DNA from: a virus
Virus record (IMG/VR): IMGVR_UViG_3300033149_003115
Location: 32,001-96,000 of that record
Length of the DNA stretch: 64,000 nt
Direction: 5' to 3' (one strand)
Shown: positions 6 to 34,952 of the stretch, in pieces
How the letters are laid out: every line of letters starts with the position of its first letter
Numbering within the stretch: the stretch's first letter is position 1
The notes under the pieces: generated by a model
What the model was told of the DNA's origin: nothing
Seen by the model: the letters and a program-made list of their open reading frames with translations, nothing else
Database searches by the model: none
Translations under genes and position numbers: made by a program

Positions 6-413
6 GTGATCTTAGCAATGAAACACACAGGTATAAAATACAAACCTAAACACCCTCTAAGTTATACCTGGAGAGGATCCTTCATCTGGGTTGGACCATC
101 CATAACATCTTCTCTAAGTGATCTAGAGGATCTGATGAGAAAGAGCAAGATCCAGGAGATAGAGAAAAACAGGAAGGTGATGTTGGCTTATAAGAGGATG
201 TACTCTAAGACTGCTATTTGTCATTCTATTATAGGATCTAGCTCTCTTATAGTTCTACTATCCCTCTTGTTGATAGGGGTACTAGAATCTTTAGCTTTGT
301 TACCCCTTGTTCTCCTTAGTATCTTTAGGATTATCGAGAGCTATTCTGATTACACAGATAAGAAAGATAAGTATGAGCAATCTCTTAAGAGCTTTGTGAT
401 AGAGGATATTTAA
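6..413 (+). CDS. hypothetical membrane protein (may be 5'-truncated)
   Basis: Two hydrophobic segments; ends FVIEDI (shared C-terminal tag). Confidence 0.6.
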   Translation: MILAMKHTGIKYKPKHPLSYTWRGSFIWVGPSITSSLSDLEDLMRKSKIQEIEKNRKVMLAYKRMYSKTAICHSIIGSSSLIVLLSLLLIGVLESLALLPLVLLSIFRIIESYSDYTDKKDKYEQSLKSFVIEDI

Positions 414-431
414 ACGATCATAGTGAGATTA

Positions 432-486
432 GTTAAGCTTTGTTCCGTTAGGCTCGGCTTCGCTAGGTTAAGTTAGGTTAAGTTTA
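432..486. repeat. degenerate pentamer tandem array G(T/C)TNN x11
   Basis: gttaa gcttt gttcc gttag gctcg gcttc gctag gttaa gttag gttaa gttta. Confidence 0.75.
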
Positions 487-539
487 ATATCACTAAATGC
501 CGATACTATCGTTATATCCTGATAATAGATTAATAAGAG

Positions 540-1127
540 GTGTATTTAGAAATGGGTACCAGAGGATTATATGGATTCTATAAGAATGGGATAACCAAGG
601 CTACATACAACCACTGGGATAGTTACCCAGAGGGGTTAGGGCTAGATCTACTGGAGGAGCTGAGAGAATACACTATAGAGCAGCTCAATGAAACATTTGA
701 CAGGATAATCCTGGTATCTGAGTCATCAAAAGCTACTGATGAGCAAATAGAGGAGTGTAAGAGGTATCTGGATCTCTCAGTGTCTACTAGATCCTCTAAT
801 GACTGGTACTGTCTCCTACGTCAGGCTCAAGGTAGCCTGAGACCATGGGTGAAGGATGGACTAAGGTATATGATCGATAATGCCTCTTTCATTAGAGACA
901 GCTTATTCTGTGAGTGGGCTTATATAATTAATCTAGATACCAATGAGCTTGAAGTGTGGAAAGGGTTTCAGCGTTTACCTGTCAAGAGCAGATATTATGA
1001 TCATAGATCTCCTGTCCATGGGTATTATCCATGTGTCCTGGTCAAGAGGTACAAGCTGGATAGTCTACCTTCTAATGAGAAGTTCCTGGAGGACATGAAA
1101 GTAGTAGAAATGATAGAGGATCTCTAG
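540..1127 (+). CDS. conserved viral hypothetical protein
   Basis: MGTRG...YNHWDSYPEGLG and EWAYIINLD motifs typical of a widespread phage protein family; ends MIEDL. Confidence 0.7.
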   Translation: MYLEMGTRGLYGFYKNGITKATYNHWDSYPEGLGLDLLEELREYTIEQLNETFDRIILVSESSKATDEQIEECKRYLDLSVSTRSSNDWYCLLRQAQGSLRPWVKDGLRYMIDNASFIRDSLFCEWAYIINLDTNELEVWKGFQRLPVKSRYYDHRSPVHGYYPCVLVKRYKLDSLPSNEKFLEDMKVVEMIEDL

Positions 1128-1129
1128 TC

Positions 1130-1369
1130 TTGAGGACCATGACATGTGCTCATTGTGGTAGGCAGTTCACTTGTAGTGGTAAATGCCAGAGGATCAGTCC
1201 CTACACATCCACTCTTTGCTCTTGTCTGGACTGTAGGATCAAGTTCTTAGTCAACTGTGAAATAGAACGATTCTCAGTCCTTCTAAAGGATATTCTAGAG
1301 ATCTATTCCACATGCTATGATCTTAGTGTAGAAGAGCTAAAGAAGAGATATATTATGTGTCTTATTTAG
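1130..1369 (+). CDS. Cys-rich Zn-binding paralog family member
   Basis: CxxCGxxFxCxxxC...CxCxxC...CY pattern. Confidence 0.8.
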   Translation: MRTMTCAHCGRQFTCSGKCQRISPYTSTLCSCLDCRIKFLVNCEIERFSVLLKDILEIYSTCYDLSVEELKKRYIMCLI

Positions 1370-1382
1370 AGGACTATATCTA

Positions 1383-1670: not shown

Positions 1671-1679
1671 GGTAAACAC

Positions 1680-1922: not shown

Positions 1923-1934
1923 ATGGGATAACAA

Positions 1935-2410: not shown

Positions 2411-2419
2411 GGAATAACC

Positions 2420-2874: not shown

Positions 2875-2949
2875 AGTGATCATATTTGGGAGAATAAGGT
2901 TATATGTTCTCAATGATCTTTTTGATAGTATACACTTTGTGATTATATC

Positions 2950-3213
2950 ATGATAGTTAGATGTTTAGACTGTGGTAGAGTCATCAAGTGTACCAGATCA
3001 TGTCATAAGATCAAAAGTCTGAAGGGGAGAGATCTGGTATTTTGCTATTGCTCAGACTGTCTAATGAAGCAGCTAGATAAGCTTTCAAGATATTCAGATA
3101 GAAGCTCCAAGCTCTCTGAGTCTGACTTGAATGATATTCTAGACAGGTTAGAAAGATGCTTTGAGATGGACAAGAGCGAAATAGACAAGATCCTAATCCT
3201 TTATTCCTTATAG
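2950..3213 (+). CDS. Cys-rich Zn-binding paralog family member
   Basis: CLDCGRVIKC...CYCSDC...CF. Confidence 0.8.
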   Translation: MIVRCLDCGRVIKCTRSCHKIKSLKGRDLVFCYCSDCLMKQLDKLSRYSDRSSKLSESDLNDILDRLERCFEMDKSEIDKILILYSL

Positions 3214-3459: not shown

Positions 3460-3594
3460 TTGGATATTAAACATGTTTGTGAGTTTGAAGCATCTGGTGG
3501 ACTATGCTGGCTAAAGGGTCTTAGGGTATGTAATGAAATAGACTATACCAAGTGTAAGACACGTAAAGCTGGACTGATCGTCTGTGAGCTATAG
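3460..3594 (+). CDS. small Cys-rich protein (44 aa, not in ORF track)
   Basis: TTG start; MDIKHVCEFEASGGLCWLKGLRVCNEIDYTKCKTRKAGLIVCEL; fills the gap and carries the C-terminal tag. Confidence 0.6.
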   Translation: MDIKHVCEFEASGGLCWLKGLRVCNEIDYTKCKTRKAGLIVCEL

Positions 3595-3604: not shown

Positions 3605-3841
3605 TTGATAAGAGTCTGCTCCAAGTGTGGTGTTGAGTTCGTGTGCAATGGAGAGTGTCCTCAATATAGAATGTTTGGTCCTTCTTGTATCTGTCTAAGA
3701 TGTAGACTAGTCTTACTCAAAACATGGAAAGAGTATTTTAATCTAGGCTATTCTTACCTGATGAGGATACTTAAAATAGAAGAGTGTTTTAACCTGGATG
3801 ATATTGAAATAAAGAAGATCTTGCTAACAGAGCTACTTTAG
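3605..3841 (+). CDS. Cys-rich Zn-binding paralog family member
   Basis: CSKCGVEFVC...CICLRC...CF; ends LLTELL. Confidence 0.8.
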   Translation: MIRVCSKCGVEFVCNGECPQYRMFGPSCICLRCRLVLLKTWKEYFNLGYSYLMRILKIEECFNLDDIEIKKILLTELL

Positions 3842-3856: not shown

Positions 3857-4156
3857 TTGATACCTGTATGTAAGAACTGTGGAAGCTCAAATATACTGGT
3901 CAAGTGGGTACGTAAGTCAGAGAAATCAGATATTGTCTCGTTTGAGAAGTATGCTAATAAACTACTAGAGGAGAGGAAGAACACCAAGCATGATATTGGA
4001 TCTCTCTATTCATCAACCATTTCCTACCCCTTCCCATCTCTCGGATCAGTGCCTGATCCCATCACTAATTACGCTCAGCTGGTCCTGACTTGTAAGAACT
4101 GTGGATACACTATAGTGATCAACATCGATAGCTGGCTAGTGGCTAATGACATCTGA
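3857..4156 (+). CDS. zinc-ribbon protein
   Basis: Two CKNCG motifs; ends LVANDI. Confidence 0.65.
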   Translation: MIPVCKNCGSSNILVKWVRKSEKSDIVSFEKYANKLLEERKNTKHDIGSLYSSTISYPFPSLGSVPDPITNYAQLVLTCKNCGYTIVINIDSWLVANDI

Positions 4157-4385
4157 AGTAGAGACAACGAAGACAAGATGTCTAAGATGTGGTAAGGAGT
4201 TCAGATGTACCAGGCACATAGCATCCATATGTAGAGATATCTCAGCTTGTATCTGCTTTGATTGTAGTGTTCCTCTCCTCTTGGAGCAGGGGATTAGTCT
4301 TCATAGTATAATATCAAGCTGTGTAGAGTGTTATGATGTTTCACCAGAGGAGGTTAAAAAGAAGATAGTCATCTCTTCCCTTTAA
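4146..4385 (+). CDS. Cys-rich Zn-binding paralog family member
   Basis: CLRCGKEFRC...CICFDC...CY; ends IVISSL. Confidence 0.8.
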   Translation: MTSEVETTKTRCLRCGKEFRCTRHIASICRDISACICFDCSVPLLLEQGISLHSIISSCVECYDVSPEEVKKKIVISSL

Positions 4386-5584: not shown

Positions 5585-5589
5585 GTAGC

Positions 5590-5889
5590 TTGATACATGA
5601 AATTACTAATAGAGTGTTAAGGAAATATGATGATTGTGAAATAAAGGAGCTCACTCCTTCATGTTCTGTGATAGTATTCCCTGGGTTCAGGCTTATAATC
5701 AAAGCCACCTTTGATTATAGTGTTTACTTGGAGATATCCTTCAAATCTAATCTTAAGATATACCTCGATTGTAATCTAGAGGTCTATTCAAAAGTCCTTG
5801 AACGTAACGCTAAGATGAATGATATACTAACATTCATAGATAAAGTCAGGTCTTTTATGGAGAAGACGATCCTGGTTAACACCTTATAG
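5590..5889 (+). CDS. hypothetical protein
   Basis: ORF; ends ILVNTL. Confidence 0.6.
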   Translation: MIHEITNRVLRKYDDCEIKELTPSCSVIVFPGFRLIIKATFDYSVYLEISFKSNLKIYLDCNLEVYSKVLERNAKMNDILTFIDKVRSFMEKTILVNTL

Positions 5890-5897: not shown

Positions 5898-6665
5898 ATG
5901 AGGTCTCCAGATAGAATGTTTAATCTACAATGTAGAAATAGCTACTTCCTATCTCAGATCTTGCCTGGCATGGATGTCATTACTAACACTCCAGAGACAC
6001 CCTATGAGAAGAACTCCATTATCCATAAGAATATCCTATTATATGCCACTCAGGGGAGTGGTAAGACAGAGACCATTAGATCTTTAGTAGAGGAGATAGT
6101 AAACAAGTATGGGAAGGATAATGTTAATGCAGTTATCTCTAGTGGATCTAATAGCCTAGAGGATCTAATGGTGTTTGGACTAGATAACAAGCTGATACAG
6201 GTCCAGGTAGCTGATGACTTCACTCTACAAGAAGTCCCTAAGGAAGTGATCAAAGCTTACTTCAAGATCAGACATATATGGTATAAGAGGATCAAAAGAC
6301 CTTTTGGATATATTCTAAGCATATTCTCACTACACAGATTTCACTCTGGAGCTAAAGAGATCAGGAGCACAGCTGATGCTGTGTTAATAAGAGACGATAG
6401 CCTCAACCCTTATGATCACTCAGTCATCAAGGGGTTCATAGGAGAGTATGGACTAGAGGATCTACACTTCATAGAAGAGAACAGGGATCTCCATCCTGTC
6501 CTCAAGAGCTACTCTATATTTGCCACCAGGACTAAAAGAGTTGGATTAGTATATTTCCCTCTAGCATCCAAGAATCACCTTAGAGAGATATCTCCTATCA
6601 AGAGCAAATACACTAATATTGAACAACGTAAGCTAATAAGGAACTGTCTTTACGGTGATATATGA
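5898..6665 (+). CDS. P-loop NTPase, A32/FtsK-HerA-like
   Basis: Walker A ATQGSGKT, Walker B VQVADD, downstream RH and EIRS motifs. Confidence 0.6.
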   Translation: MRSPDRMFNLQCRNSYFLSQILPGMDVITNTPETPYEKNSIIHKNILLYATQGSGKTETIRSLVEEIVNKYGKDNVNAVISSGSNSLEDLMVFGLDNKLIQVQVADDFTLQEVPKEVIKAYFKIRHIWYKRIKRPFGYILSIFSLHRFHSGAKEIRSTADAVLIRDDSLNPYDHSVIKGFIGEYGLEDLHFIEENRDLHPVLKSYSIFATRTKRVGLVYFPLASKNHLREISPIKSKYTNIEQRKLIRNCLYGDI

Positions 6666-6880
6666 TGAGCAAGGAAATAGTCAGAGTATGTAAGATATGT
6701 GGAAGGAGATGGAAGTGTGTCCCTAGACGAGTCAACAGGAGTGAGCTTTGTACTAAGGATTGTATCCAAGTCTGCTTCAGCTGCTTCACCCCTACTAATG
6801 GTCTAAAGAAAGAGGATGTTATAAACTCTAGATGTTACAAGCTAGAGGATTTCAAGTACAAGATCAGCTCCCTGATATGA
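6662..6880 (+). CDS. Cys-rich paralog (divergent)
   Basis: CKICGRRWKC...CFSC...CY. Confidence 0.65.
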   Translation: MMSKEIVRVCKICGRRWKCVPRRVNRSELCTKDCIQVCFSCFTPTNGLKKEDVINSRCYKLEDFKYKISSLI

Positions 6881-7746: not shown

Positions 7747-8046
7747 GTGTCAAAGACAGGACAGCTAATTGAGATATCCAATATCTTAGTTAGAAAGAAA
7801 GGATTTACTATAAGATCTTTGAACCGTGAGGAGTCTAAGTTAAAATATAAAACCATAGATCTAAGGATCACCTGTGAGTACTCAGGGCTTAGCTTGGAAA
7901 TGGAAATGGGCTCCAAGATAGCTAATAATAACAAAACCATTCTATCCCTTACATGTTCTAGTATATTTGGTGTGGTTAAGGTTCTTGAATGGGTAGATGA
8001 AGCTCTTAGAATACTAACCAAGGTAGCTGTTATAGATGAGCTTTAG
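7747..8046 (+). CDS. hypothetical protein (start uncertain)
   Basis: Ends VAVIDEL; a short ORF from ATG 7614 overlaps in another frame. Confidence 0.55.
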   Translation: MSKTGQLIEISNILVRKKGFTIRSLNREESKLKYKTIDLRITCEYSGLSLEMEMGSKIANNNKTILSLTCSSIFGVVKVLEWVDEALRILTKVAVIDEL

Positions 8047-8055: not shown

Positions 8056-8328
8056 TTGATCTGTATAAGCTGTGGTAAAGAGTTCAATTGTGACTCTAAA
8101 TATAGACTACATTGTACATTCTACGAGACAGGCGAGTGTTATTGTCCTTCTTGCGATATTGAGCTCCATTATTCTGAAAGCAATATATCGAGCTTAGAAC
8201 CTAGAGAGGTAGATATCCTCTTTGAACAATATGTCCTACATCATGTTAGGTGTTATGGGTCTAAGAGTCTTATCAAATATTCAGATAAAATATTACATCT
8301 TTATTTTAAAGGGAGGAATAATGTTTAA
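8056..8328 (+). CDS. Cys-rich Zn-binding paralog family member
   Basis: CISCGKEFNC...CYCPSC...CY; lacks the C-terminal tag. Confidence 0.75.
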   Translation: MICISCGKEFNCDSKYRLHCTFYETGECYCPSCDIELHYSESNISSLEPREVDILFEQYVLHHVRCYGSKSLIKYSDKILHLYFKGRNNV

Positions 8329-8557
8329 ACATCTTTGCTTAGAATGTAACAAAGAGTTCCAATGTACTGGAGAAGGATGTACATCTTATTTTCCTTATAT
8401 CTCAACATGTCCTTGTTACAAATGTTTTCTGGAGATTAACAAGAGCTTGATATTAAATCCTGACTTAGCTGGATTTGTTAGAGAACAGTTTATTCTATGT
8501 TATGGTGAGTCTAAAGTACATTATTTTGATAGATATTTAGTACGGGAGACCTTGTAA
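8321..8557 (+). CDS. Cys-rich Zn-binding paralog family member
   Basis: Start moved to the ATG after GGAGG; CLECNKEFQC...CPCYKC...CY; ends LVRETL. Confidence 0.75.
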   Translation: MFKHLCLECNKEFQCTGEGCTSYFPYISTCPCYKCFLEINKSLILNPDLAGFVREQFILCYGESKVHYFDRYLVRETL

Positions 8558-9366
8558 TGTATCCTAAAGTATTATCTTTACATTGTACTAATCAATGTAA
8601 TCTAAGATGTAGATTCTGTTATATACCCAAAAATAAGAGATCTAAACCATTGAATTGGTTCTTGGATATTCCATCTGTAGCTAGAGACATAGGGATAGAA
8701 CAGATAGCCATAGGTGGAGGGGAGGTGACCTTATTCCCCAAGTTCCTAACCAAGCTAGCTAAGAGGTGTGTAGAGAATGATATTATACCCAACCTCACCA
8801 CCAATGGGATCAAGTTCGATCCATCCAAAATAGATACCAGCTTGTTTGGAGTGATATCCTTTAGCTTGGACTCTTACAAGATGTCTCATCTAAGCTATCA
8901 CCATCTGAGACGTATCATATCTAGTATCCAGAAATATCCTGACAGAGATCATAAGCCTAAAATCGGGATTAACTATTTACTCCTTAACAAGAGATCTCTA
9001 TACCAGCTTCCTCTGGTGATCAGATCTCTTGATGATATTGTGGACAGCTGGTACATCTTACATCTTAAATATCACCCAGTGGACTATAAGAGGAAAGACC
9101 TTGAGGGTGTCCTATACCTTCTTTCCCCTTTCCTTAGAGACAAACTACTGGTGGATGATTCTATTCAGGTCATCCTGGGTAAGAAGGAGATCTGTAATAG
9201 AGGTAGAGATCTGGTTAGTATAGATCCAAGTGGAAATGTCAAACCCTGCTCTTTTGACTCTTCCATAGGTTACTTGAATGATCCTAGAGATCTTAAAGAC
9301 ATAGTAAACATGTACTATCCTATGATGTTTGATGATAATAGGTGTCCTTATATTGTCTACAAATAG
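8557..9366 (+). CDS. radical SAM protein with SPASM/twitch-like C-terminus
   Basis: CNLRCRFC, GGGE, TTNG, GNVKPC. Confidence 0.9.
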   Translation: MYPKVLSLHCTNQCNLRCRFCYIPKNKRSKPLNWFLDIPSVARDIGIEQIAIGGGEVTLFPKFLTKLAKRCVENDIIPNLTTNGIKFDPSKIDTSLFGVISFSLDSYKMSHLSYHHLRRIISSIQKYPDRDHKPKIGINYLLLNKRSLYQLPLVIRSLDDIVDSWYILHLKYHPVDYKRKDLEGVLYLLSPFLRDKLLVDDSIQVILGKKEICNRGRDLVSIDPSGNVKPCSFDSSIGYLNDPRDLKDIVNMYYPMMFDDNRCPYIVYK

Positions 9367-9457: not shown

Positions 9458-9646
9458 ATGTCTAAAATACTGGAGATAGGAGACAAATGTCCTGATCATA
9501 TCCGTGTATCATGTATCCCAGGATGCTATTGCTGTAAATGTAATCTCCATGAGAGGGTGTGTATTCATTGTCCTTGGGAGATCATATCAAGGTTCCCTCA
9601 TGAGTTCTCTAAGATAGCCAGGCTAAAGCTAATAAATGAGCTATAA
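9458..9646 (+). CDS. small Cys-rich protein
   Basis: CYCCKC motif; ends KLINEL. Confidence 0.55.
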   Translation: MSKILEIGDKCPDHIRVSCIPGCYCCKCNLHERVCIHCPWEIISRFPHEFSKIARLKLINEL

Positions 9647-21190: not shown

Positions 21191-22111
21191 ATGATGAAGG
21201 TGATAGTAACAGGTGGGTTGGGGTTCATAGGTAGTAACCTGGTGGAGAGGCTAGTAAAAGAGGACTATGAGGTGACTATCTTTGATAACTACCACACTGG
21301 TAGCTTTGCTAATGTGAAAGAGTTCTACGATAGTAAAGTATACGATCTAACTCATCTTAGATACTTTGGTAAGAATGATGTGGTCTTTCACTTTGGGACA
21401 CCATCATCATCCCCTATGTACAAGAGGAATCCTCTGCTAGTATCGGAGGCTATAAGGGACTTTATTAGAGTGTTGGAGTATTGTAAAAGAACTAAGAGCA
21501 AGCTGGTGTTTGCTAGCTCCTCCAGTCTCTACAATGGTAACTATACCCCTTTTAAAGAGAATATGAGCATTAAGGTCACAGATTACTACACTGAGGCTAG
21601 ATATAGTATGGAGAGACTAGCTGAGCTATATTCTAAGCTACATAAAGTTAGATCCATAGGACTCAGGCTCTTTAGTGTCTATGGTCCCAGGGAGGAGCAT
21701 AAGAAGCAGTATGCTAATGTCATCACTCAGTTCCTATGGAAGATGTTAAAAGATGAGCAACCAGTGATCTATGGAGATGGCACTCAGACCAGGGACTTTA
21801 TACATGTCAGTGATGTGGTTGATGCATGTATGTTAGCCATGAATTATAGAACTAAGTTTGAGATCTTCAACATAGGGACTGGTGATGCATACTCCTTCAA
21901 TGATGTGGTAGAGCTTCTGAACCTACTACTTCTTAAGGACATATCTCCTAAGTATATCAAGAACCCTGTTAAGAACTATGTTAAGCACACACTGGCTGAC
22001 ACCAGGAAAGCTGAGAGAAAGCTCAAGTTTAAGTCTAAGGTTGATCTGGAGAAAGGGGCTAGAGGTTTAGTGGAGTATTACCTGTATAACAACTTGTTCG
22101 ATGGGATCTAG
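21191..22111 (+). CDS. NAD-dependent nucleotide-sugar epimerase/dehydratase
   Basis: TGGLGFIG, SSS, LRLFSVYGP, GDGTQTRDF; catalytic YxxxK reads YxxxR. Confidence 0.9.
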   Translation: MMKVIVTGGLGFIGSNLVERLVKEDYEVTIFDNYHTGSFANVKEFYDSKVYDLTHLRYFGKNDVVFHFGTPSSSPMYKRNPLLVSEAIRDFIRVLEYCKRTKSKLVFASSSSLYNGNYTPFKENMSIKVTDYYTEARYSMERLAELYSKLHKVRSIGLRLFSVYGPREEHKKQYANVITQFLWKMLKDEQPVIYGDGTQTRDFIHVSDVVDACMLAMNYRTKFEIFNIGTGDAYSFNDVVELLNLLLLKDISPKYIKNPVKNYVKHTLADTRKAERKLKFKSKVDLEKGARGLVEYYLYNNLFDGI

Positions 22112-22315
22112 ATGTCTAAAGAATATGATGGGTACGTCATTAAGAAGCTCTCCTATAGGGTGTGGCTAGTAGTGTCACCTGAAGGGAGATCATACTATGT
22201 TATCTTAACAGATAGAAAATGGATATGTACCTGTCCTTATTACAATAGGTTTCCAAGAGCTTGTAAACATATTAGATATGTGATCAGGTCTATCATGGAG
22301 GAGAGTAAGAAATGA
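22112..22315 (+). CDS. SWIM zinc-finger protein
   Basis: CTCP...CKH. Confidence 0.8.
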   Translation: MSKEYDGYVIKKLSYRVWLVVSPEGRSYYVILTDRKWICTCPYYNRFPRACKHIRYVIRSIMEESKK

Positions 22316-22530
22316 CCATTTCTCCTTCATCAGGATGTTGGATATCCTCTTCTACCTTAGAAGGTACCTTAGAAGGTACATTTTCTATATTAATAAAATG
22401 TGATATATGTGGTAGAGAAGCTGATATCAGATCTTGCTCTCAGATCTTTGTAAGAGATAAGCAGATATTCCTGTGTGAGGAATGCACAGTGAAAATGTTA
22501 GGTAAGCTAATCACTGTTGTGGATCTCTAG
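22312..22530 (+). CDS. small Zn-finger protein
   Basis: CDICG...CEEC; ends ITVVDL. Confidence 0.6.
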   Translation: MTISPSSGCWISSSTLEGTLEGTFSILIKCDICGREADIRSCSQIFVRDKQIFLCEECTVKMLGKLITVVDL

Positions 22531-22771
22531 AGGTATTGAAATGAATAACATAGAAGCATTTTATATTACCTTAGACTCTTTTAGACACACAGCTGACATT
22601 AGAGTGGATCTCTCTATTTCAGATCCCTTTAAATGTCATAATTGTGAGGGTTTTATAGACCAGGGGAAAGGATATTTTATTTTAGATCCTAAGAGACACA
22701 AGGTGTTTCACCTCTGTAGAAACTGTGGAAATGAAGTGTTAAAGAAGCTAGAAGTGATAGAATGTTTGTGA
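22517..22771 (+). CDS. small Zn-finger protein
   Basis: CHNC...CRNC; ends EVIECL. Confidence 0.6.
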   Translation: MWISRGIEMNNIEAFYITLDSFRHTADIRVDLSISDPFKCHNCEGFIDQGKGYFILDPKRHKVFHLCRNCGNEVLKKLEVIECL

Positions 22772-23773: not shown

Positions 23774-24013
23774 ATGAGTAATATAGCTACTTTTTCTATT
23801 AGCCCTAAAACTTGGACATCAGTCAAGAAAAGGTGTCCATTAATAGAGATATGTAATAGGAAAATACCAGAAGACATATTTAAGTTCACTTGTATGTCCA
23901 CTGACTACGTATATTGTGAATACTTTAAGGAACATGCTACTAAGGATATGCTAGACAAGATATTCAAAGAGCCTAAAAAGTGGTTAGCTATGAGAGTAGC
24001 TGAGGACATATAA
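23774..24013 (+). CDS. small Cys-containing protein
   Basis: Ends RVAEDI. Confidence 0.55.
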   Translation: MSNIATFSISPKTWTSVKKRCPLIEICNRKIPEDIFKFTCMSTDYVYCEYFKEHATKDMLDKIFKEPKKWLAMRVAEDI

Positions 24014-24014: not shown

Positions 24015-24347
24015 ATGAATAGCTATCTTGTAGTTCCTTTCTTAGAGACAGTGTACTTCCTCATAGGGTTGAACTTTGGTAGAGCATTTGGTAAGAAGCT
24101 GGATCAAGAGATACAGAGAAGTGAATGGTATAAGAGGAGATCCAAACCTACTAGATGGATGATCAGGAGAATGTTGGACTTTACTCATCACTGGTACATA
24201 GGGGCATTAATGATGATTTATTCTAGCTGTCCAGAAACCTACTGGTTCGGAGCTGGATTACTAATAGACGACTTACCAGACATTCCAAGAAGAATCAAAT
24301 CAGTTTTAGCTGATTTAAAGAAAATGGCAAAAGAAAATAATCCTTAA
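24015..24347 (+). CDS. small membrane protein, homing-endonuclease target (chimeric 3' end)
   Basis: HHW...GAGLLIDD motif; C-terminal half duplicated at 24827..24961. Confidence 0.75.
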   Translation: MNSYLVVPFLETVYFLIGLNFGRAFGKKLDQEIQRSEWYKRRSKPTRWMIRRMLDFTHHWYIGALMMIYSSCPETYWFGAGLLIDDLPDIPRRIKSVLADLKKMAKENNP

Positions 24348-24368
24348 AGATATTATGAGGTTAGAATA

Positions 24369-24821
24369 TTGGACTGGTCTTATATAGCTGGGTTTATAGA
24401 TGGTGAAGGCAATATTGGATTGATGAAAAGACGAGGCACTAAAAGAATAGAACCTTATTTGAAGATGGTGAACTCAAATAGAGAAGTTCTTGAAGAAATC
24501 GAGAAATTCATAGGAGCTGGTGTTGTGAGGTTAAATAACAAAGGTAGCTTTAAAAAGAACTGGAGGAAAACTTATGTTCTTGTGTTCAACTCTAGAGATA
24601 ATATTAGGACTATCTTAAAAAATTGTATAAATGATTTAATAGTAAAACAGAGACAAGCTGAGCTCATGTTAGAGTTCATTAAAATTAGAGATCTCAAATG
24701 TAGATCAGGTTCCCCCTTAAAAGGGAGATCAAGAGGTTCTTCAAGCTTTGATGAAGAATTAAAAATATATGAAGAGATGAAAAAGTTAAACTTTCAACGA
24801 GGTAAGGCACATTATAAATAG
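24369..24821 (+). mobile_element. free-standing single-motif LAGLIDADG homing endonuclease
   Basis: YIAGFIDGEG; LIVKQRQA; locally AT-rich. Confidence 0.9.
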
Positions 24822-24826
24822 AAAGG

Positions 24827-24961
24827 ATAGGAGCACTTATGATGATTTACTCTAACTGTCCAGAGACTTATTGGTTTGGAGCTGGTATCCTGGTTGATGA
24901 TCTCCCTGATATCCCTAGAAGAGTAAAAGAGGTAATGTCTGATCTGAGGAGAGAGCCTTAA
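24827..24961 (+). pseudogene. displaced original 3' end of the 24015 gene
   Basis: Encodes IGALMMIYSNCPETYWFGAGILVDDLPDIPRRVKEVMSDLRREP-stop. Confidence 0.85.
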
Positions 24962-24964: not shown

Positions 24965-25624
24965 ATGACTATCTATGTTGATATCCATGAGCCGTCTTCT
25001 ATGTCCACTAAGCTCAAACACCTTGGGGTGGATGTCAAGGTGATGGACCTTAAGGTGGGGGACTACTGGGTGGGAGATGCCATGATAGAGCGTAAGACCA
25101 TAGATGACTTCCTCAGATCCATAGTACAGAAGAGATACTATAAGCAGCTTTACAACATGATGAAGAACACCAAGAAGGGGATGGTCTACATTACTGGAGT
25201 ATATCCCAAAGTACCTCCGATGAGGAGAGTTGGGGGTAAGCTAAGACCTATAGACATAGAAAGTGTGTTGAGGACTCATAGGATCGTTAGCTATTATTCC
25301 TTTAGAATACCAGTGTTCCATGTTAGCTCTGATGATGATCTCATCAAGGATCTGCTGGAGTATCATACCAAATCAGGTAAGAATGTCTCTCTCAAACCCC
25401 TGGACATCAGACGTAAAGCTGATAGCCTGGAGGATATCAGGACTAACATATTTGGATCCATACCAGGGATAGGGAGGAAGACAGCTAACTACCTGGGTAA
25501 GCATCTCTCTCTAGAGAGTGTGTTCTCCATGTCGGTGGATGAGCTTAGAGATCTTAAAGTAGGAAATAAGAGATTAGGAAAGAGAGGTGAGCACATATAC
25601 AATGTCTTCCATGATAAGAGATAA
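24965..25624 (+). CDS. xpf: XPF/ERCC4 structure-specific nuclease with HhH
   Basis: VDIHE, VGDY, IERKTIDD, IPGIGRKTA. Confidence 0.85.
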   Translation: MTIYVDIHEPSSMSTKLKHLGVDVKVMDLKVGDYWVGDAMIERKTIDDFLRSIVQKRYYKQLYNMMKNTKKGMVYITGVYPKVPPMRRVGGKLRPIDIESVLRTHRIVSYYSFRIPVFHVSSDDDLIKDLLEYHTKSGKNVSLKPLDIRRKADSLEDIRTNIFGSIPGIGRKTANYLGKHLSLESVFSMSVDELRDLKVGNKRLGKRGEHIYNVFHDKR

Positions 25625-25826
25625 GAAGGATGTTGAGCTAGGAAAGGATATACCCTCTATCAAGAAGCAGCTAGGTAGACCTGTCACATGCTTTGGATGT
25701 GGTAAGATAATAGAGAACCTAGAGGACATCAGGTGGGGTAGAGTAGTGATAGAAATGGGTAATCTAAGGTTTAGATACCTGGCTCCATTCTGTAGTGACA
25801 AATGTGTGGTCACTTATGAGCTGTGA
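25587..25826 (+). CDS. TRASH/MYM-like Zn-finger protein
   Basis: CFGCG...FCSDKC; ends VVTYEL. Confidence 0.6.
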   Translation: MSTYTMSSMIRDKKDVELGKDIPSIKKQLGRPVTCFGCGKIIENLEDIRWGRVVIEMGNLRFRYLAPFCSDKCVVTYEL

Positions 25827-27277: not shown

Positions 27278-28174
27278 ATGAGTGATGGATATAGTAGGTT
27301 ATGGGAAGAGAAGGGTGATGAGTGGGAGATCCTGTATCTAAGCCCTGATGAGATCAAGGGGATATCCCAGTACAATGCTAGGAAGACATTCCCTGATAAG
27401 GAGCTAGAGGAGCTGGTGATCTCTCTGAGAGAAGCTGGTATTAACACCAGACCTATCATCCTGGACCAGCACAATGAGGTGGTGGAGGGTGGTAGAAGAT
27501 ATCAAGCAGCTCTCAAAGCTGGGCTAGAGAAGGTCTTCTGTCTTAGAAAGACCATGACACCTCTGGAGGCTAAAGTAAGATCCTTCATAGAGAACGAGCT
27601 ATCATATGACATGACTGAAAGAGACAGATATCTCTTTGCTAAGGATCTGGTTGAGAAAGAGGGGATCAAGCCAGAGGACATAGCTTTCATAGTGGGAAGA
27701 TCACATAGCACTGTTAGAGAATGGTTAGCCTATGAGAAATACCCAAAGGTGCTCTCAGAATCTGATGCCAGGGATGTGTATGATACTCAGTCAGCTAGAA
27801 AGAGAAAGATCCTGAGGGTCACTATAGATAACCCAGCCTTCCAGGATGATCCAGAGGCTGCTCTCAAGCTAGCAAAACATCTGGACAAGATCAGGCATAG
27901 GACACTGGACGATATTAAGCAGGATGTCAAGGAGGGAGTCTTCAACTCTCATGCATCAGAGAAGGTGGATAGGATAGTGAGGAGGGAGGAAGAGCTCTCA
28001 TCACACCCTGAGAAGTTTAGGCTTAGACATCTAAGGGTCCCTAGAGAGCTGGACAGGAGGCTGATCAAGGTATTCAAGTTTGATTATCCCAAGGATCCAG
28101 TGGAGGATGCTATAGTGAAGATCCTGGAGGACTATGTGAATACAAGAGAAAAAGAGCTGGGGTTTGTACGATGA
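27278..28174 (+). CDS. ParB/Spo0J-like protein
   Basis: YNARK...ELVISLREAG...VVEGGRRYQA, SFIEN, HTH IAFIVGRSHSTV. Confidence 0.85.
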   Translation: MSDGYSRLWEEKGDEWEILYLSPDEIKGISQYNARKTFPDKELEELVISLREAGINTRPIILDQHNEVVEGGRRYQAALKAGLEKVFCLRKTMTPLEAKVRSFIENELSYDMTERDRYLFAKDLVEKEGIKPEDIAFIVGRSHSTVREWLAYEKYPKVLSESDARDVYDTQSARKRKILRVTIDNPAFQDDPEAALKLAKHLDKIRHRTLDDIKQDVKEGVFNSHASEKVDRIVRREEELSSHPEKFRLRHLRVPRELDRRLIKVFKFDYPKDPVEDAIVKILEDYVNTREKELGFVR

Positions 28175-28386
28175 GGGTAGTGATAATCTTTGACACAACT
28201 GAACCATCATTTGAAGCTGAAGTGTTCCATGATGGGGTCAAGAAGAAGAACCTTAGTAACCTGTTCTTGTTACTAAGACCCACTCAGCTTCCCATATATG
28301 AGACCTTCCAGAACATCCTATTTTATGATATTTTAGAAAAAGGGATCAATGCTGTTAAGAAAGAAAGAGTGGTAGAGGAGCTATAG
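28171..28386 (+). CDS. hypothetical protein
   Basis: Ends RVVEEL. Confidence 0.55.
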   Translation: MRVVIIFDTTEPSFEAEVFHDGVKKKNLSNLFLLLRPTQLPIYETFQNILFYDILEKGINAVKKERVVEEL

Positions 28387-30975
28387 ATGAGGCTCTGCCT
28401 GACCAATATAGACTACAAGATAGAGGACAATGCTCCAGTTGTTTACATGTTTGTGAGGGACATAGAGGGGAATAGGTACATCATTAGAGACAATAGCTTT
28501 GAGCCTTATTTCTATATTAGAGAGAAAGACTACAATGTCTTGAGACTGGATGACAAGAGGAGAGGGTGCATTAAGAGAGTTGAGAAGGGGAACTTCAAGC
28601 TCTTAAGGGCTAGTAGAAGAGGAGTGAAGATAGTAACTTATTTACCTGGTCAGGTCAGGGAGCTCAGGAACTGGTTACACTCTATGAGGGATAGGAGGGA
28701 GCATCCCAGAGGGATAGAGACGTATGAAGCTGATGTGTTGTTTGTCTATAGATACCTTATAGATAGGAAGATCATCAATGGGGTGGAGATAGATGACAAG
28801 TATTTCAGGATATGTAAAGACCTTGGATATATCCCCTGGAGTGATGAATATTGTGGACCAGCAAATGTTGAGTTCTCCAGGGTTAGATGTTTGTTTATAG
28901 ATATTGAGGTCACAGACGGGATCCCCAAAGAGGGGTACACATCCCCAGTGACCGTGATAGGGACTTATGACTCTTTCACCAGACAATACCATGTGTTCTA
29001 TTGGAGGGGATCCCATTATTCTATCTCATCTGATCATATCATATACAGCAGATCAGAGGATGGCATGTTTGTTAGGTTCTTGGAGTATGTTAGCAAGATA
29101 AACCCAGATCTTATCCTCTCCTTTACCAAGTTTGACATGTTGTATCTTATCAAGAGGATGAGAAAGATCAGGCTAGATCCCTCAGTGTTATCTCAGATAG
29201 GGACAGTGAAGTGTTATGACAAGATGGAGAGAGTGAGCATAGGTGGTGTTGAGTACATAGACCTGGGACAGGTGTACAAGAAGGTGGTGAGAGGACAGAA
29301 ATGGGAGACTCTGGATGCTATCTCTAACAGGGAGCTAGGGTATGGTAAGAAGAGGCTAAGCAAGGGTGATATATACTCTACCTGGATACATGATTATAGG
29401 AGTGTGTTACTCTATAACCTCAGAGATGTGTTCTTGATCAAGAAGCTAGATGAAAAGCTTGATCTTGTGGATTACTTGGATGTTATCAGGAGAATAGTGG
29501 GGTGTAGGTTCAATGATGCTATGTTTGCAGCTAGAGTGGCTGATATCCTCTACCTGAGGTTGCTAAATGGGAAGCTAGCCTTGTTCTCTAGACCTATGGA
29601 GAGAGCTAAAAGAGGGTACCTGGGAGCAATGGTGTACACAGCTAAGAAAGGTATTTACGATCATGTTGTGTGTCTGGACTATAGGTCATTGTACCCCTCT
29701 ATCATCAGGGCTTACAACATTGGCTATAACACCTATGATCCGATAGCTGGGGATATAGTGATAGCTGAGAACTACAAGTACAGGAGTGATGTCCAGAGCT
29801 GGACTGTTAAGATATTAAATGATCTAAGTCCTCTCCTGGATGAGAACAAGAGAGAGATAGAGAAAGCTAAGAAGGCTAAGGACTTTGCTGAGGTTAAGAG
29901 ACTAAAGAGAAGACGTATGGCTCTGAAGTCTATTGTAAATGGTATCTATGGCTTCTATGGGTATGCAGGGAACCCAGATGAGCATCACCCAGCTGCTAGG
30001 TTATATTCATCCGACATAGCAGAGTCTATCACAGTAGCAGCTAGGAAGCTACTAGAGAAGACATGGAGCATAGTCGGGGATCTGGGGTATGAAATGGTGT
30101 ACTCTGACACAGACTCAGTATTTGTCAAGCTAAAGGGGACTGATAACTACATGGATGAGAGCATGGAGCTTAAAGACAAGATAGAATCCAGGTTGTGGAG
30201 CTATATCAGGGAAAGATGGAGGATAGACCCTTCTAACTTCATACTAGACCTGGAGGATGTCTATAAGAAATTTGTGATATTGACTAAGAAGAGATATAGT
30301 GCTCTGACCATAGATGGGGATAGAATAAACAAGGGACTGGAGATAGTCAGGAGGGATCAATCAGATCTGACGGTGGAGACCCAGAAGGGGTTACTGGATC
30401 TGATCCTTAAGGATGCTCCAGTATCCAGGATTAGGGAGTTTGTCAAGGGACAGATAAGGAAGCTAGACACTGAGCCATTGGAAAGGGTGGGGATAGCTGC
30501 TATGCTTCAACAGAGGAGGGACAGCTACACCAGTGCAGTTATCCATCTCAAGGCATTTGAATTTGCTAATCAGGTGTTGAAGCTCGATCTAGAGGAGGGT
30601 GAGAGGTTCTATTATATCTTCATCAAGCCATACAAGCTAAAGAGAGTGAGGATAAGGATCAGGCTGAGCAGCCCAGTCATGAGCTCTCAGGGAGAGATCT
30701 ATGATGTGGTGAGCGATGAGGGCAAAGGGTACCAGAATAAGAAGATAGCTCACATCACCAGGGACATTATCAGTGATGTGGCTGGGTTCAGATCATCATC
30801 TGATCTTGAGAGAGCTCCTGGGATAGTTGTGGACAAGGAGAGGTTATTGGATCGTACTATAAAGAGCAAAGTGGAGGATCTCCTAGATCTGGTGGGTTTA
30901 TCATGGAGTGAGATATTAGATGAGACAAGGAACCAAAAGAGATCAAGGCTTGACTACTATTTCTCATCAAGCTAA
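28387..30975 (+). CDS. polB: family B DNA polymerase
   Basis: Exo DIE, FD; LDYRSLYPS, KSIVNGIYG, YSDTDS, KKRY; PIP-like RSRLDYYF. Confidence 0.95.
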   Translation: MRLCLTNIDYKIEDNAPVVYMFVRDIEGNRYIIRDNSFEPYFYIREKDYNVLRLDDKRRGCIKRVEKGNFKLLRASRRGVKIVTYLPGQVRELRNWLHSMRDRREHPRGIETYEADVLFVYRYLIDRKIINGVEIDDKYFRICKDLGYIPWSDEYCGPANVEFSRVRCLFIDIEVTDGIPKEGYTSPVTVIGTYDSFTRQYHVFYWRGSHYSISSDHIIYSRSEDGMFVRFLEYVSKINPDLILSFTKFDMLYLIKRMRKIRLDPSVLSQIGTVKCYDKMERVSIGGVEYIDLGQVYKKVVRGQKWETLDAISNRELGYGKKRLSKGDIYSTWIHDYRSVLLYNLRDVFLIKKLDEKLDLVDYLDVIRRIVGCRFNDAMFAARVADILYLRLLNGKLALFSRPMERAKRGYLGAMVYTAKKGIYDHVVCLDYRSLYPSIIRAYNIGYNTYDPIAGDIVIAENYKYRSDVQSWTVKILNDLSPLLDENKREIEKAKKAKDFAEVKRLKRRRMALKSIVNGIYGFYGYAGNPDEHHPAARLYSSDIAESITVAARKLLEKTWSIVGDLGYEMVYSDTDSVFVKLKGTDNYMDESMELKDKIESRLWSYIRERWRIDPSNFILDLEDVYKKFVILTKKRYSALTIDGDRINKGLEIVRRDQSDLTVETQKGLLDLILKDAPVSRIREFVKGQIRKLDTEPLERVGIAAMLQQRRDSYTSAVIHLKAFEFANQVLKLDLEEGERFYYIFIKPYKLKRVRIRIRLSSPVMSSQGEIYDVVSDEGKGYQNKKIAHITRDIISDVAGFRSSSDLERAPGIVVDKERLLDRTIKSKVEDLLDLVGLSWSEILDETRNQKRSRLDYYFSSS

Positions 30976-31186
30976 TCCTAACATAGTGATCACATATCTT
31001 GATCTTGATGACTATCCACACCCTAAGCTTGATCTATCACCACCATACACTTACTCGTTAATATCTTATTGTTATGAGTGTAAAAAGAAGTTCAAGCCTA
31101 ATGATAAGATTATATGGTATAGAGATTTTAAAGACATCTATAGACCCTACTGCTCTATGAGATGTCTAGTCAAGCATATTCTTTAA
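30920..31186 (+). CDS. TRASH-like Zn-finger protein
   Basis: CYEC...YCSMRC; ends LVKHIL. Confidence 0.5.
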   Translation: MRQGTKRDQGLTTISHQANPNIVITYLDLDDYPHPKLDLSPPYTYSLISYCYECKKKFKPNDKIIWYRDFKDIYRPYCSMRCLVKHIL

Positions 31187-31240: not shown

Positions 31241-31426
31241 ATGCCTAAACCCTTGTATAAATATTCTATGTGGTTATGTCCTCAATGTGGTAAAGAGCTA
31301 AGTGTCTCTAGTGTCAAGTATCATAAAATAGACAATGGTGTGTTCAAGAGTGATAAGGTGATAATAGAGACTACTTATGAGTGTAAAGTATGTGGGTGGT
31401 CTTACTGGGAATCAGAGGAGGTATAG
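31241..31426 (+). CDS. zinc-ribbon protein
   Basis: CPQCG...CKVCG. Confidence 0.65.
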   Translation: MPKPLYKYSMWLCPQCGKELSVSSVKYHKIDNGVFKSDKVIIETTYECKVCGWSYWESEEV

Positions 31427-31428
31427 AC

Positions 31429-31767
31429 ATGGAGACCAGGGTTCTTCTTAAGGAGTACTTTAAGGATAAGATAGTGAAGGATAAGAAATGTCCTTATTGT
31501 GACCAAGTGTCATTAGTCTTACAAAGGGATGTTGACTACCACACATTACGTTCTTACTACTGGTGTACTGAGTGTGGATTTGCTATAAGCTCTTACTTAT
31601 TAGATAACCCTGAACATGCTGAGGATGCTTTGAAAGTAGCTGTGGAATGGTATAACGAGCTATTGGAGAAAAAGAAGGGGTTAGAAAGAAGCTTAGGGTA
31701 TGTAACTGACAGGCTAAGGAGAGCTGGTAAGAAGGTACTGAGATCAGTGGTGATCGATGAGCTATGA
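31429..31767 (+). CDS. zinc-ribbon/coiled-coil protein
   Basis: CPYC...CTECG; start after GGAGGT; ends VVIDEL. Confidence 0.65.
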   Translation: METRVLLKEYFKDKIVKDKKCPYCDQVSLVLQRDVDYHTLRSYYWCTECGFAISSYLLDNPEHAEDALKVAVEWYNELLEKKKGLERSLGYVTDRLRRAGKKVLRSVVIDEL

Positions 31768-31973
31768 CCAGGTGCGAGTCCTGTGGATCTTTCTTTAATG
31801 GGAGGGGATCCAACAATCTATGCTTAAGGTGCTTCCTGAAGGTTCTGGAACATTTCCCATTCTTGAAACATCTGTTGTACTCATCTGATGAGCTCTTTGA
31901 TCTATACTTTACCACTTATTATGATGAGCCAGTTGACAAGATCAGAAAAATGATAATAGCTGAAATACTGTAG
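31764..31973 (+). CDS. small Zn-finger protein
   Basis: CESCG...CLRC; ends IIAEIL. Confidence 0.6.
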   Translation: MTRCESCGSFFNGRGSNNLCLRCFLKVLEHFPFLKHLLYSSDELFDLYFTTYYDEPVDKIRKMIIAEIL

Positions 31974-33105: not shown

Positions 33106-33152
33106 AAAGTGATAAATAGTCGTGAGAGGGATAGAATAAAGAGGAGATTGAC

Positions 33153-33368
33153 ATGAGTGAAGAGGTTATTGAGGAAAAGAGCAAAGCTGACATGATTATA
33201 GAGACAATATCCAAGTCCACTGGTGCTGTGGTGGTGTTTTGCTATCTAGTGACCATATTCGCTGTCTTGCTAGGACTGGGGTATATTGATCAGTCTCTAT
33301 TCAAAGAGCTAGTATTGAGTGGAGCATTGGTCTCAGCTGTTCTTAGACTCTTAAAGAATGAAAAGTGA
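33153..33368 (+). CDS. small two-TM protein (holin-like)
   Basis: Two hydrophobic helices, charged termini. Confidence 0.5.
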   Translation: MSEEVIEEKSKADMIIETISKSTGAVVVFCYLVTIFAVLLGLGYIDQSLFKELVLSGALVSAVLRLLKNEK

Positions 33369-33375
33369 TAGGTAA

Positions 33376-34770
33376 ATGAGGATAACACGTAGAAAGCTAG
33401 CTCCTCCAGAGGAAAAAGAGCATAGTGTGATGGAGCTAGTCAGATCAGCTAATGCCAGGGACAGAGCCCTGATGTGGACTCAGCTAGAGGAGAGAATAAA
33501 GTCAACAGTCTCCAGCTCTCAGCTAGAGACTCTTTTTCACTCTGATGGGTTAACCTTCAGAGAGGTGTATGATTATGTTGATTTCATAGTGGGACCAGGG
33601 TTCTACTTTGAAGGTGATCCCAAGCTGGTGAGGATATGTGATGAATGGAGTGATCTTGTGAGGCTTAAGAGAATACTGGAGGAGTGTGTCAAGGACATAC
33701 TGGTGGGAGGAGCTGGTAATGCATGGGTGGAGCTAGGATACAATGAGAGAGGGAGTGATATCCTAGCTCTCAGGATTCTTAACCCTAAGACGATGGACTA
33801 TATCAGGGATGATGCTAGTAAGAATGTCCTGATAGATGATGATGGTGAGCCACTGGGGTATAGGAGGATCAAGGATCAGATAAATGAGATGGAGTGGAGG
33901 AAAGACAGGATCACCAGAGATGGTGGTGTCATTTGGAGAGCTCCTCCAGGTCAGGATGGTAGGGACAGAATAGCTCATTTCAAGCTATTTGGGATAGGGG
34001 AGTCCTACCTGGGACAATCACCCCTGGAGACAGCTTACAAGCAGGCTATTATCAGGCTTAACCTCGAGGATAATGTCGGAGAGGGAGGGTACAGATCAGG
34101 AGGCATTGTAGCTTATGTTGGCAATGAGAAGTTCCCAAAGCCTTCTCCTAATATCATAGACAAGATAGTGGAGGATCTGAGAAATGTCACCACCCAGTCA
34201 GTGTTTGGGTTTCCTCACTTTGTCAAGCTGGATAGGCTACCATCCCCTGATCTGAGTGGTAGGGATGAGCTAATATTGTACTTTGCATCTATACAGTCCA
34301 TAGCTATGGGGATACCCATCACCAGACATCTACACACCACATCTGGGAGGTTAGCTGCTAAGGTGTCAGCTGATATGAACCTGGACTTTGAGCAGCGTAT
34401 AGCCTCTTTACAAGATAGACTGGCTGAGCAGGTGAGGGAGAAGCTGTTGTTTAGAATGTTGAAAGCTAGGAGACTAGTGAGCAAGTATAACGAGGTACCC
34501 AAGATGATATTTAGGAGCAAAGCTCCACATCTATTGGAGAAGCTAGTGAACATGTTGTCCAGGCTTGGAAGGAGAGACCTGGTACGTAGAGATCCAGAGC
34601 TAGAGAAGAGAGTGAGAGAGGAACTTGGACTACCAACATCCTTCGTGGATAAGGAGCTGGAGGACTGGAGAGCTAGGGGATCAACCCCAAGATCCTCAAA
34701 AGGCAAGCAGGACATTGATGTTGATGAGATAGCTGAGGCAGTCATTGAGCATTTAGAAGAGTCTGAGTAG
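33376..34770 (+). CDS. portal protein
   Basis: GNAWVE...LNPKTM...IAHFK...YLGQSPLE pattern typical of tailed-virus portals. Confidence 0.75.
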   Translation: MRITRRKLAPPEEKEHSVMELVRSANARDRALMWTQLEERIKSTVSSSQLETLFHSDGLTFREVYDYVDFIVGPGFYFEGDPKLVRICDEWSDLVRLKRILEECVKDILVGGAGNAWVELGYNERGSDILALRILNPKTMDYIRDDASKNVLIDDDGEPLGYRRIKDQINEMEWRKDRITRDGGVIWRAPPGQDGRDRIAHFKLFGIGESYLGQSPLETAYKQAIIRLNLEDNVGEGGYRSGGIVAYVGNEKFPKPSPNIIDKIVEDLRNVTTQSVFGFPHFVKLDRLPSPDLSGRDELILYFASIQSIAMGIPITRHLHTTSGRLAAKVSADMNLDFEQRIASLQDRLAEQVREKLLFRMLKARRLVSKYNEVPKMIFRSKAPHLLEKLVNMLSRLGRRDLVRRDPELEKRVREELGLPTSFVDKELEDWRARGSTPRSSKGKQDIDVDEIAEAVIEHLEESE

Positions 34771-34772
34771 GG

Positions 34773-34952
34773 ATGAGCAAGCTTGACTGTTGCTACTGTC
34801 ACAAGCCTATTCAGGACAACAAGAGGTACTTTGTGTTGATACTAAGACAGAAGGGGACCTATGGCAACGAGCTTAGACTGAACTTTTGTAGCTTCAAGTG
34901 CTTGGAACATGTTATTAACAACCCAGCTGTCATCATCACTGAGATCCTCTAA
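34773..34952 (+). CDS. TRASH-like Zn-finger protein (59 aa, not in ORF track)
   Basis: MSKLDCCYCHKPI...FCSFKCL...VIITEIL. Confidence 0.65.
   Translation: MSKLDCCYCHKPIQDNKRYFVLILRQKGTYGNELRLNFCSFKCLEHVINNPAVIITEIL

Follow-up and report, generated by a model that had tools for sequence, protein, structure and literature searches.

The stretch of DNA analysed here, hereafter the window, comprises 64,000 nucleotides (bases 32001–96000) of the 113,897-bp virus record IMGVR_UViG_3300033149_003115 from IMG/VR, a record with direct terminal repeats that is referred to below as G000. Along its first 35 kb, numerous small genes encode proteins of different kinds that finish, directly before the stop codon, in the same type of short C-terminal sequence. 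Around one quarter of the G000 genes and half of its smallest genes share this one terminal helix ending on leucine or isoleucine, and we propose, with somewhat less than even confidence, that it is a protein-level address tag carried by about 50 small accessory proteins of at least 23 body types and read in trans by a single partner. A greedy gene caller found 200 open reading frames (ORFs) in the whole record, whose gene content includes PolB, NrdD with its activase, a RadA/Rad51-type recombinase with an HhH domain, an ERCC4 nuclease, ParB-like proteins, and an HK97-type capsid. The closest cultured PolB sequences are those of haloarchaeal tailed viruses (22–24% identity) and an archaeal host is likely; the relatives of NrdD are scattered across both archaea and bacteria and therefore give no host inference, and no tRNA genes were detected in the record.

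All tagged genes described here for the window lie on the plus strand. The series opens with a membrane-type protein of 135 aa (6–413; score 10.2 in the position-specific scoring matrix (PSSM) introduced below) that has a hydrophobic segment before its tail, followed by a 195-aa protein of the YNHWD family (540–1127), in which the tag replaces the variable tail after the conserved domain. Most of the next genes belong to one zinc-finger family, here called family A, assigned by clustering: a member with a weaker tag at 1130–1369 (PSSM score 4.5), the structurally modelled member at 1680–1922, one supported by clustering at 2168–2410, and tagged members supported by both clustering and PSSM at 1383–1670, 1935–2171, 2647–2874, 2950–3213, 3605–3841, 4146–4385, and, much further downstream, 31764–31973. 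An additional tagged member with an N-terminal extension (8222–8557) has a stop codon that overlaps the start of a radical-SAM gene. Between 2420 and 2650 lies a family A member that lacks several Cys ligands as well as the tag and that may be a decaying paralogue.

Interspersed with family A are a Cys-containing protein of 44 aa with a singleton body (3460–3594; clustering and PSSM), a two-CxxC protein of 99 aa (3857–4156) whose orthologue in the related genome G002 (35% identity) has the G002 version of the tag, another 99-aa protein with a singleton body (5590–5889) whose G002 orthologue (29% identity) is likewise tagged, and a Cys-rich protein of 72 aa with a loose tag (6662–6880), the orthologues of which in G002 and on a metagenome contig (L002) have the same tail type at 41–43% identity. 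A tagged 99-aa ORF at 7747–8046, found by six-frame search, overlaps a minus-strand ORF that was preferred by the caller, and a tagged member of Cys-rich family C (9458–9646) clusters with two tagged members upstream of the window. Beyond 20 kb follow a 91-aa protein of helical appearance (20900–21175; PSSM score 10.5), two zinc-ribbon proteins, the first with a G001 orthologue (35% identity) that has the G001 version of the tag (22312–22530) and the second identified by PSSM (22517–22771), a 79-aa protein (23774–24013; PSSM), and an FCS-type zinc-finger protein (25587–25826) recognised on inspection of the ending before its stop. The top PSSM score of the window, 17.2, belongs to a 71-aa protein encoded directly upstream of PolB (28171–28386), whose G001 orthologue (35% identity) is also tagged. 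An FCS-type ORF of 88 aa found by six-frame search (30920–31186) overlaps the 3′ end of PolB, a zinc-ribbon and helix protein of 125 aa (31390–31767; PSSM) has a G002 orthologue with the G002 version, and an FCS-type zinc-finger protein of 59 aa (34773–34952), identified from the ending before its stop, is the last tagged gene before NrdD.

An earlier note, made from the letters of the window, had listed 26 such endings and had counted about 28 unrelated tagged proteins over 35 kb. Each of the 26 endings was recovered immediately 5′ of a stop codon on the plus strand, two of them in ORFs outside the set of the greedy caller (the six-frame ORFs at 7747–8046 and 30920–31186). The phenomenon is larger than had been described: the tagged region begins 21 kb upstream of the window, and the genome total is about 50. 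A strict pattern, [VILMF][VILMFAT]xx[LI]-COOH, which was chosen after the data had been seen, is matched by 47 of the record's 200 ORFs; its frequency at internal positions would predict 4.2 (binomial P ~1e-34 for a post hoc pattern). All 47 matches fall within genome positions 11–67 kb, and there is not one among the 74 ORFs elsewhere in the genome. The bias of a post hoc pattern is avoided by a cross-validated PSSM that was trained solely on ORF ends upstream of the window: among the 124 C-termini of ORFs from the window start through the end of the record, 19 exceed the 99th percentile of internal 10-mers against 1.24 expected (P = 4e-17), and 18 of the 19 fall in window positions 1–35 kb. 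Uncalled “shadow” ORFs of the same region match the strict pattern in 9 of 147 cases, some of which are probably real genes. The tagged ORFs have a median length of 80 aa (n = 47), and the tagged share in the accessory region declines with size, from 36 of 69 ORFs of up to 100 aa through 8 of 29 ORFs of 101–200 aa to 2 of 25 larger ones. As had been noticed before, the tag is absent from the replication, nucleotide, glycosylation, and virion genes of G000. An epimerase (21191–22111) and an ATPase (5898–6665) were considered as loose tag carriers and rejected, their L/I endings being due to chance and their orthologues ending differently.

Selection on the ending acts at the level of the protein. 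Information content at the tag reaches up to 1.8 bits at second codon positions and is about 0 bits both at third positions and in the 24 nt 3′ of the stop. The codons at positions -1, -4, and -5 are not significantly different from background, with a minimum of 0.04 among eight uncorrected P values; leucine is encoded by all six of its codons in proportions like those of the background, and the spacing from a tagged ORF to the next gene varies from -11 to +129 nt. The earlier note had proposed a protein-level signal and had named conservation at the DNA level as the observation that would speak against it; no such conservation was found.

The earlier description of the motif, with a hydrophobic pair and a terminal L/I-COOH, holds as far as it goes, but the tag is longer than described, with a real extent of about 12 residues. 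Among the 47 strict endings, acidic residues are common at -12/-11, I or L at -10, K or R at -8 (33/47), V, I, or L at -5 (45/47), I, L, V, or A at -4, and E, D, or N at -3 (31/47), before the L or I at -1; the hydrophobic stretch at -6 to -4 comprises two or three residues. Proline and glycine are nearly absent from the last 12 residues and enriched just upstream of them, and the start of the helix is often preceded by S/T/D/N or a P/G break. In an AlphaFold2 model of the family A member at 1680–1922, based on an alignment of 34 sequences and with a mean predicted local distance difference test (pLDDT) score of 82.9, the tag forms the last helix (residues 68–79), in sequence blocks with mean pLDDT 90–93. 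A model of Cys-rich family B has a low mean pLDDT of 57, with the terminal helix as its best-scored segment, and thereby lends weak support to a terminal helix. The models thus predict that the tag is a terminal helix of roughly 12 residues. Searched against the PDB with Foldseek, the family A model had no match with E below 3.

After trimming of the last 14 residues, 54 loosely tagged G000 proteins were grouped by BLAST into 29 clusters (sizes 16, 7, 3, 2, and 2, plus 24 singletons). The cluster of 16, with 11 members in the window, is family A, the cluster of 7 is a second Cys-rich family, and three to five of the singletons in the window resemble FCS-type zinc fingers. “About 28 unrelated” proteins was therefore too generous for the window, in which 11 are family A paralogues and three to five are of the FCS type; roughly a dozen body types remain there, and the statement that the tag occurs on different folds stands, with a membrane protein, the YNHWD family, a DUF932-like protein, and several zinc-finger types among them. 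Judged by sequence clustering, at least 23 separate body types carry the tag in G000. The idea of a single diverged paralogous family was rejected in view of the 29 clusters, as paralogy holds only for the subsets of 16, 7, and 3.

Where a tagged body has relatives elsewhere, the tag behaves as an acquired end. The YNHWD-family protein has 705 homologues, and the ends of 120 examined are mostly acidic or polar (62 on E or D), with a tag in a single one, the nearest relative (P0002, 61% identity). Among 1.84 billion proteins, family A is represented by about 30 clusters from elsewhere; around half of their representatives have the tag exactly at the C-terminus and a few run 2–4 residues past it. 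One G000 protein stops exactly after a tag-like end, where its 68%-identical orthologue in the tag-free relative G008 is four residues longer, and among orthologues the tag is kept at identities of 27–61%. From these comparisons, the tag appears to have been added onto or carved out of pre-existing C-termini. A similar end is seen in a 633-aa G000 protein (genome 7856–9757, L004), which has a strong tag-like match ending four residues before its C-terminus; its G002 counterpart (L095, 499–2394) shows the same with a two-residue extension.

The tag is not restricted to G000. On the 7-kb contig L002, which holds the nearest YNHWD relative, 15 of the 17 plus-strand ORFs are tagged, most of them without a G000 homologue. 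Seven further uncultured viruses are tagged, with 14–38 ORFs each. Where 2–5 strict tags per genome are expected by chance, the counts are 47 of 200 ORFs in G000, 16 of 208 in G001, 14 of 179 in G002, 16 of 190 in G007, 23 of 88 in G003, 38 of 284 in G004, 35 of 246 in G005, and 21 of 152 in G006. The PolB proteins of G004 and G005 are only 23% identical to that of G000. Each genome has its own version of the ending: in G005 positions -10 to -1 are most often S, K, D, E, hydrophobic, M, V, E, L, and L, and in G004 position -5 is mostly F. In a leave-one-out scoring of 194 tagged proteins from seven genomes, which form 141 body clusters, the correct genome was recovered for 118 tags (mean 31 and maximum 43 in permutations), and after paralogues had been collapsed to one protein per body cluster and genome, 95 of 155 were still assigned correctly (permuted mean 25, maximum 35). 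A genome-specific consensus on unrelated proteins is to be expected if each genome has a single reader, and neither folding constraints nor shared ancestry readily accounts for it.

Scans of viral contigs with the major capsid protein, P0002, or the zincin-vWA protein of G000 (see below), each used singly, retrieved no relative useful for comparison, and a PolB-based scan retrieved just the four known relatives and distant short contigs. The comparison with a tag-free genome comes from a RadA-based scan, which recovered G008, a complete relative with terminal repeats that has 54 proteins in common with G000, including a capsid protein 57% identical and a PolB 40% identical. Despite 105 small ORFs, G008 has one tag match against 3.6 expected, and of the approximately 50 tagged G000 genes it has no homologue other than the orthologue extended by four residues. 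The tagged G007 (L205) and the tag-free G008 (L206) bear the same sample number in their IMG/VR names, and both types may share one habitat.

The uniformity of the tag within a genome would be kept by a single partner that reads it in trans, and a common trans-acting reader of this kind probably exists. The hubs that had been suggested for this role in the earlier note fare poorly. The AAA+ protein (16859–18232, plus strand, PF00004) lacks a homologue (E ≤ 1e-5) in G001, G002, G007, and G004, all of them tagged and two of them, G002 and G007, complete, and a degron read by the classical AAA+ unfoldase of the virus itself was rejected, since this gene does not co-occur with the tag. The 255-aa AAA/A32-like ATPase (5898–6665, plus strand) is absent from the tagged genomes G003–G006 and present in the tag-free G008 at 42% identity, and the ParB proteins also have homologues in G008.

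The best virus-encoded candidate is instead a pair of genes located 8–11 kb upstream of the window (genome 21207–23718). The first (genome 21207–22442) encodes a MoxR-class AAA+ ATPase, with a match to phrog_1297 “ATPase” at E = 1.6e-79 and weak matches to Pfam AAA_5/AAA_3. The second encodes a zincin-vWA protein: the zincin part matches PF13203 (E = 5.6e-38) and, weakly at the profile level, the minimal zincin MJ1213, with H77 and E78 of its HExxH motif nearly invariant and H81 invariant, and the vWA part matches PF09967 (E = 1.5e-19) and the profiles of integrin I-domains, with the metal-ion-dependent adhesion site residues D302, S304, S306, T363, and D387 invariant in 42 sequences. In the genomes compared, the pair occurs in all eight that are tagged and is missing from the tag-free G008 and G010; it is also present without tags in G009 and at about 60 other loci. 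Of nine G000 proteins that all tagged close relatives have and G008 lacks, the MoxR and zincin-vWA proteins are the only ones shared with the distant tagged genomes. In a tree of the zincin-vWA protein (DUF2201), all nine tag-positive loci fall within one clade of 16 rows (Shimodaira–Hasegawa-like approximate likelihood ratio test support 98), and the 57 rows outside the clade include none with this tag and none with a common C-terminal motif of any other kind in a de novo search. The zincin-vWA gene of G007 (genome 47314–49599, L237) is an open frame of 761 aa in which about 330 extra residues, which may be an intein or an additional domain, lie between two halves that match the G002 protein at 90–94% identity.

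That this pair is the reader is a tentative proposal, which we consider doubtful even though no other viral candidate fits as well. Under this proposal, the vWA metal site or the peptidase cleft would capture the tag through the acidic residue at -3, the free carboxylate, or both, and the captured client would then be processed, remodelled, or removed. In its fullest and least secure form, which we regard as rather unlikely, a clade of uncultured, probably archaeal tailed viruses would use a MoxR AAA+/zincin-vWA machine that reads a genome-specific C-terminal helix on 15–50 fast-evolving clients and processes, activates, or destroys them as a group. A radical-SAM/SPASM enzyme encoded within the tagged block (8557–9366, plus strand; PF04055 at 2.3e-11 and a weak SPASM match) is a possible accessory; BLAST homologues occur in the tagged genomes G002, G007, G004, and G005 and are lacking in the tag-free G008, a pattern that other radical-SAM paralogues may confound.

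Several observations weigh against an address tag read by the MoxR/zincin-vWA pair. The pair occurs without tags at the 57 loci outside the clade, and inside the clade without local tags at L096, L098, L102, and L147, and G009, a genome 45% complete, has the pair and no tags although its copy is nearest to the tag-associated clade; the pair must therefore have a function independent of the tag. No insertion or residue set specific to the clade distinguishes the zincin-vWA protein of the tagged genomes. Six of the eight tagged genomes were found via the pair itself, and the independent RadA-based sample is small (four genomes with tag and pair, three with neither, one with the pair only). Genomes that are related do not count as independent events, and the state of G008 may go back to one loss. 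In the best model, the tag helix is folded with high confidence and could pack on its own protein instead of being free. A host reader, finally, accounts equally well for the genome-specific versions.

Such a host reader is the alternative that survives best, although we judge it, too, to be rather improbable. The partner would be a host protease, unfoldase, chaperone, or replication or transcription hub, the tag a degron or host-docking motif, and the versions would differ as the hosts differ; a host-specific reader would explain them no worse than a viral reader. The occurrence of the MoxR/vWA pair without tags in many viruses is in keeping with this. Proteases and adaptors classically recognise nonpolar residues next to a free C-terminal carboxylate, and the tag ends on such a residue. 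The close relatives G007 and G008, with one sample identifier and opposite tag content, argue weakly against a host reader.

The tags could also recognise each other, their terminal helices holding the small proteins together as hetero-oligomers or as parts of one assembly, for instance a viral factory, with no separate reader. A short amphipathic helix with hydrophobic residues at -6, -5, -4, and -1 would be suited to this, and uniformity within a genome would likewise be expected. The strict L/I-COOH end and the K/R at -8 on the hydrophobic face in G000 would be unusual for packing in a coiled coil or bundle, however, and the helix has just 2–3 turns, which makes mutual recognition improbable. 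We give equally little credence to an intramolecular role, in which the C-terminal helix caps small folds, is inherited in a few expanded families, and is otherwise convergent for stability. It draws on the paralogy of 16 + 7 + 3 tagged G000 proteins and on the family A model, in which the high-confidence tag helix adjoins the preceding helix. It is opposed by the 141 body clusters among 194 tagged proteins, the 120 YNHWD homologues examined, most of which fold without a tag, the large and structural proteins of the same virus, which are never tagged, and the tag-free close relative with its 105 small ORFs, and genome-specific drift across unrelated bodies is not expected from independent folding constraints. 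A translated DNA- or RNA-level signal (a ribosome-binding site or promoter of the next gene, a recombination cassette, or a stop-codon context) is rejected as having next to no likelihood, for although GGTGAT-like Shine-Dalgarno strings precede overlapping starts in a few endings (among them 1935–2171 and 31390–31767), the near absence of information at third codon positions and downstream of the stop, the background use of Leu codons, and the variable distance to the next gene contradict it.

Signals at the free C-terminus of many unrelated proteins that are read by one receptor are well known, among them PTS1 (SKL-COOH) read by the TPR protein Pex5, the EEVD end of Hsp70/90 read by TPR domains, class III PDZ ligands ([ED]-x-hydrophobic-COOH), and the signals of Dot/Icm type IV effectors. 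The G000 tag is likewise a short motif in this position, and with its acidic residue at -3 and hydrophobic last residue it resembles the class III PDZ ligands; unlike all of these signals, it is longer, predicted to be helical, virus-encoded, and variable by genome, and no PDZ or TPR proteins were matched among the approximately 50 G000 proteins scanned with Pfam. Short shared peptides also address several unrelated proteins in a virus or an HK97-fold shell: the T4 capsid targeting sequence is N-terminal and removed by the prohead protease, and encapsulin cargo-loading peptides are extended. The tag differs from the former in its location at the extreme C-terminus and from the latter in being helical, and fifty small zinc-finger and membrane proteins are unlikely capsid cargo, with no link to the capsid genes seen. 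Degrons of the ssrA type and other C-terminal degrons, which are read by AAA+ proteases, likewise have nonpolar residues at the free carboxylate after charged ones and would allow a timed removal of early proteins; in contrast to them, the classical AAA+ of G000 itself does not accompany the tag. We know of no defined readers of C-degrons in archaea.

No description of such a tag was found in the literature. Its closest published analogue comes from vWA-MoxR conflict systems and is their peptide-processing module (Kaur, Burroughs, Iyer, Aravind 2020, PMC7159879, section 24), known in FxSxx-COOH, RxD, and acidic types, in which a zincin peptidase acts on small, fast-diverging proteins with a conserved C-terminal peptide, sometimes together with a radical-SAM/SPASM enzyme. 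The zincin with its vWA/MoxR context, the small diverging proteins with a conserved C-terminal peptide, and a radical-SAM/SPASM gene nearby are common to both. Those systems, unlike G000, are cellular and mostly actinobacterial and have one or few precursors and other motifs, with a VMAP or FtsH third component and AP-ATPase effectors, whereas the clients in G000 number around 50 and differ widely in fold, with membrane proteins and proteins of 195–246 aa among them, and its peptidase is fused to the vWA domain. In the published systems, the peptidase cleaves the precursor and releases the C-terminal peptide; for G000, such cleavage would be a prediction. A non-exhaustive Pfam scan of about 50 G000 proteins matched no VMAP, FtsH third component, or NTPase effector.

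The same two-gene architecture is found in two further published settings. In group 2.2 jumbo phages, a MoxR AAA+ and metallopeptidase-vWA pair was proposed to serve virion assembly or the processing of structural proteins, with no tagged client set mentioned (Iyer et al. 2021, PMC7824862). In NorQ-NorD, the vWA partner docks on the ATPase with a C-terminus and inserts a finger into the ATPase pore (PMC13036017), and MoxR machines do, therefore, read terminal peptides, although NorQD acts on one target for metal insertion and has no proteome-wide tag. A virus-wide tag on dozens of unlike proteins is described in none of these three papers.

Most of what is unexplained in large viral genomes consists of small accessory genes. 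If the shared ending is indeed read by a single partner, dozens of orphan genes would be given a functional class at once, the tag could be used as bait and thus as a direct experimental handle, and the system would show how viruses control a whole effector set together; the genome-specific versions make it accessible to tag swapping. If the link to the MoxR/zincin-vWA pair is true, it would provide a first function for a gene pair that is widespread in phages and for which virion assembly has so far been the guess.

Two further loci deserve mention. Just downstream of the MoxR/zincin-vWA pair, G000 encodes a DUF932-like protein of 246 aa (genome 24461–25201; L005, 4461–5201), a resemblance that comes as a lead from the ESM Atlas only, with no Pfam match; the protein is tagged in G000, G001, G002, and the contig L002 and has a homologue in G007. 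Tagged proteins of 280–306 aa beside the pair in the distant genomes were tried as its homologues and rejected, with hidden Markov model search, hhalign, and Pfam all negative. Within the window, the C-terminal part of a 110-aa gene (24015–24347) recurs as a 40-aa ORF (24839–24961), with a 150-aa ORF (24369–24821) between them, and from its sequence the region 24015–24961 looks like a gene split by an inserted element that carries a replacement 3′ end.

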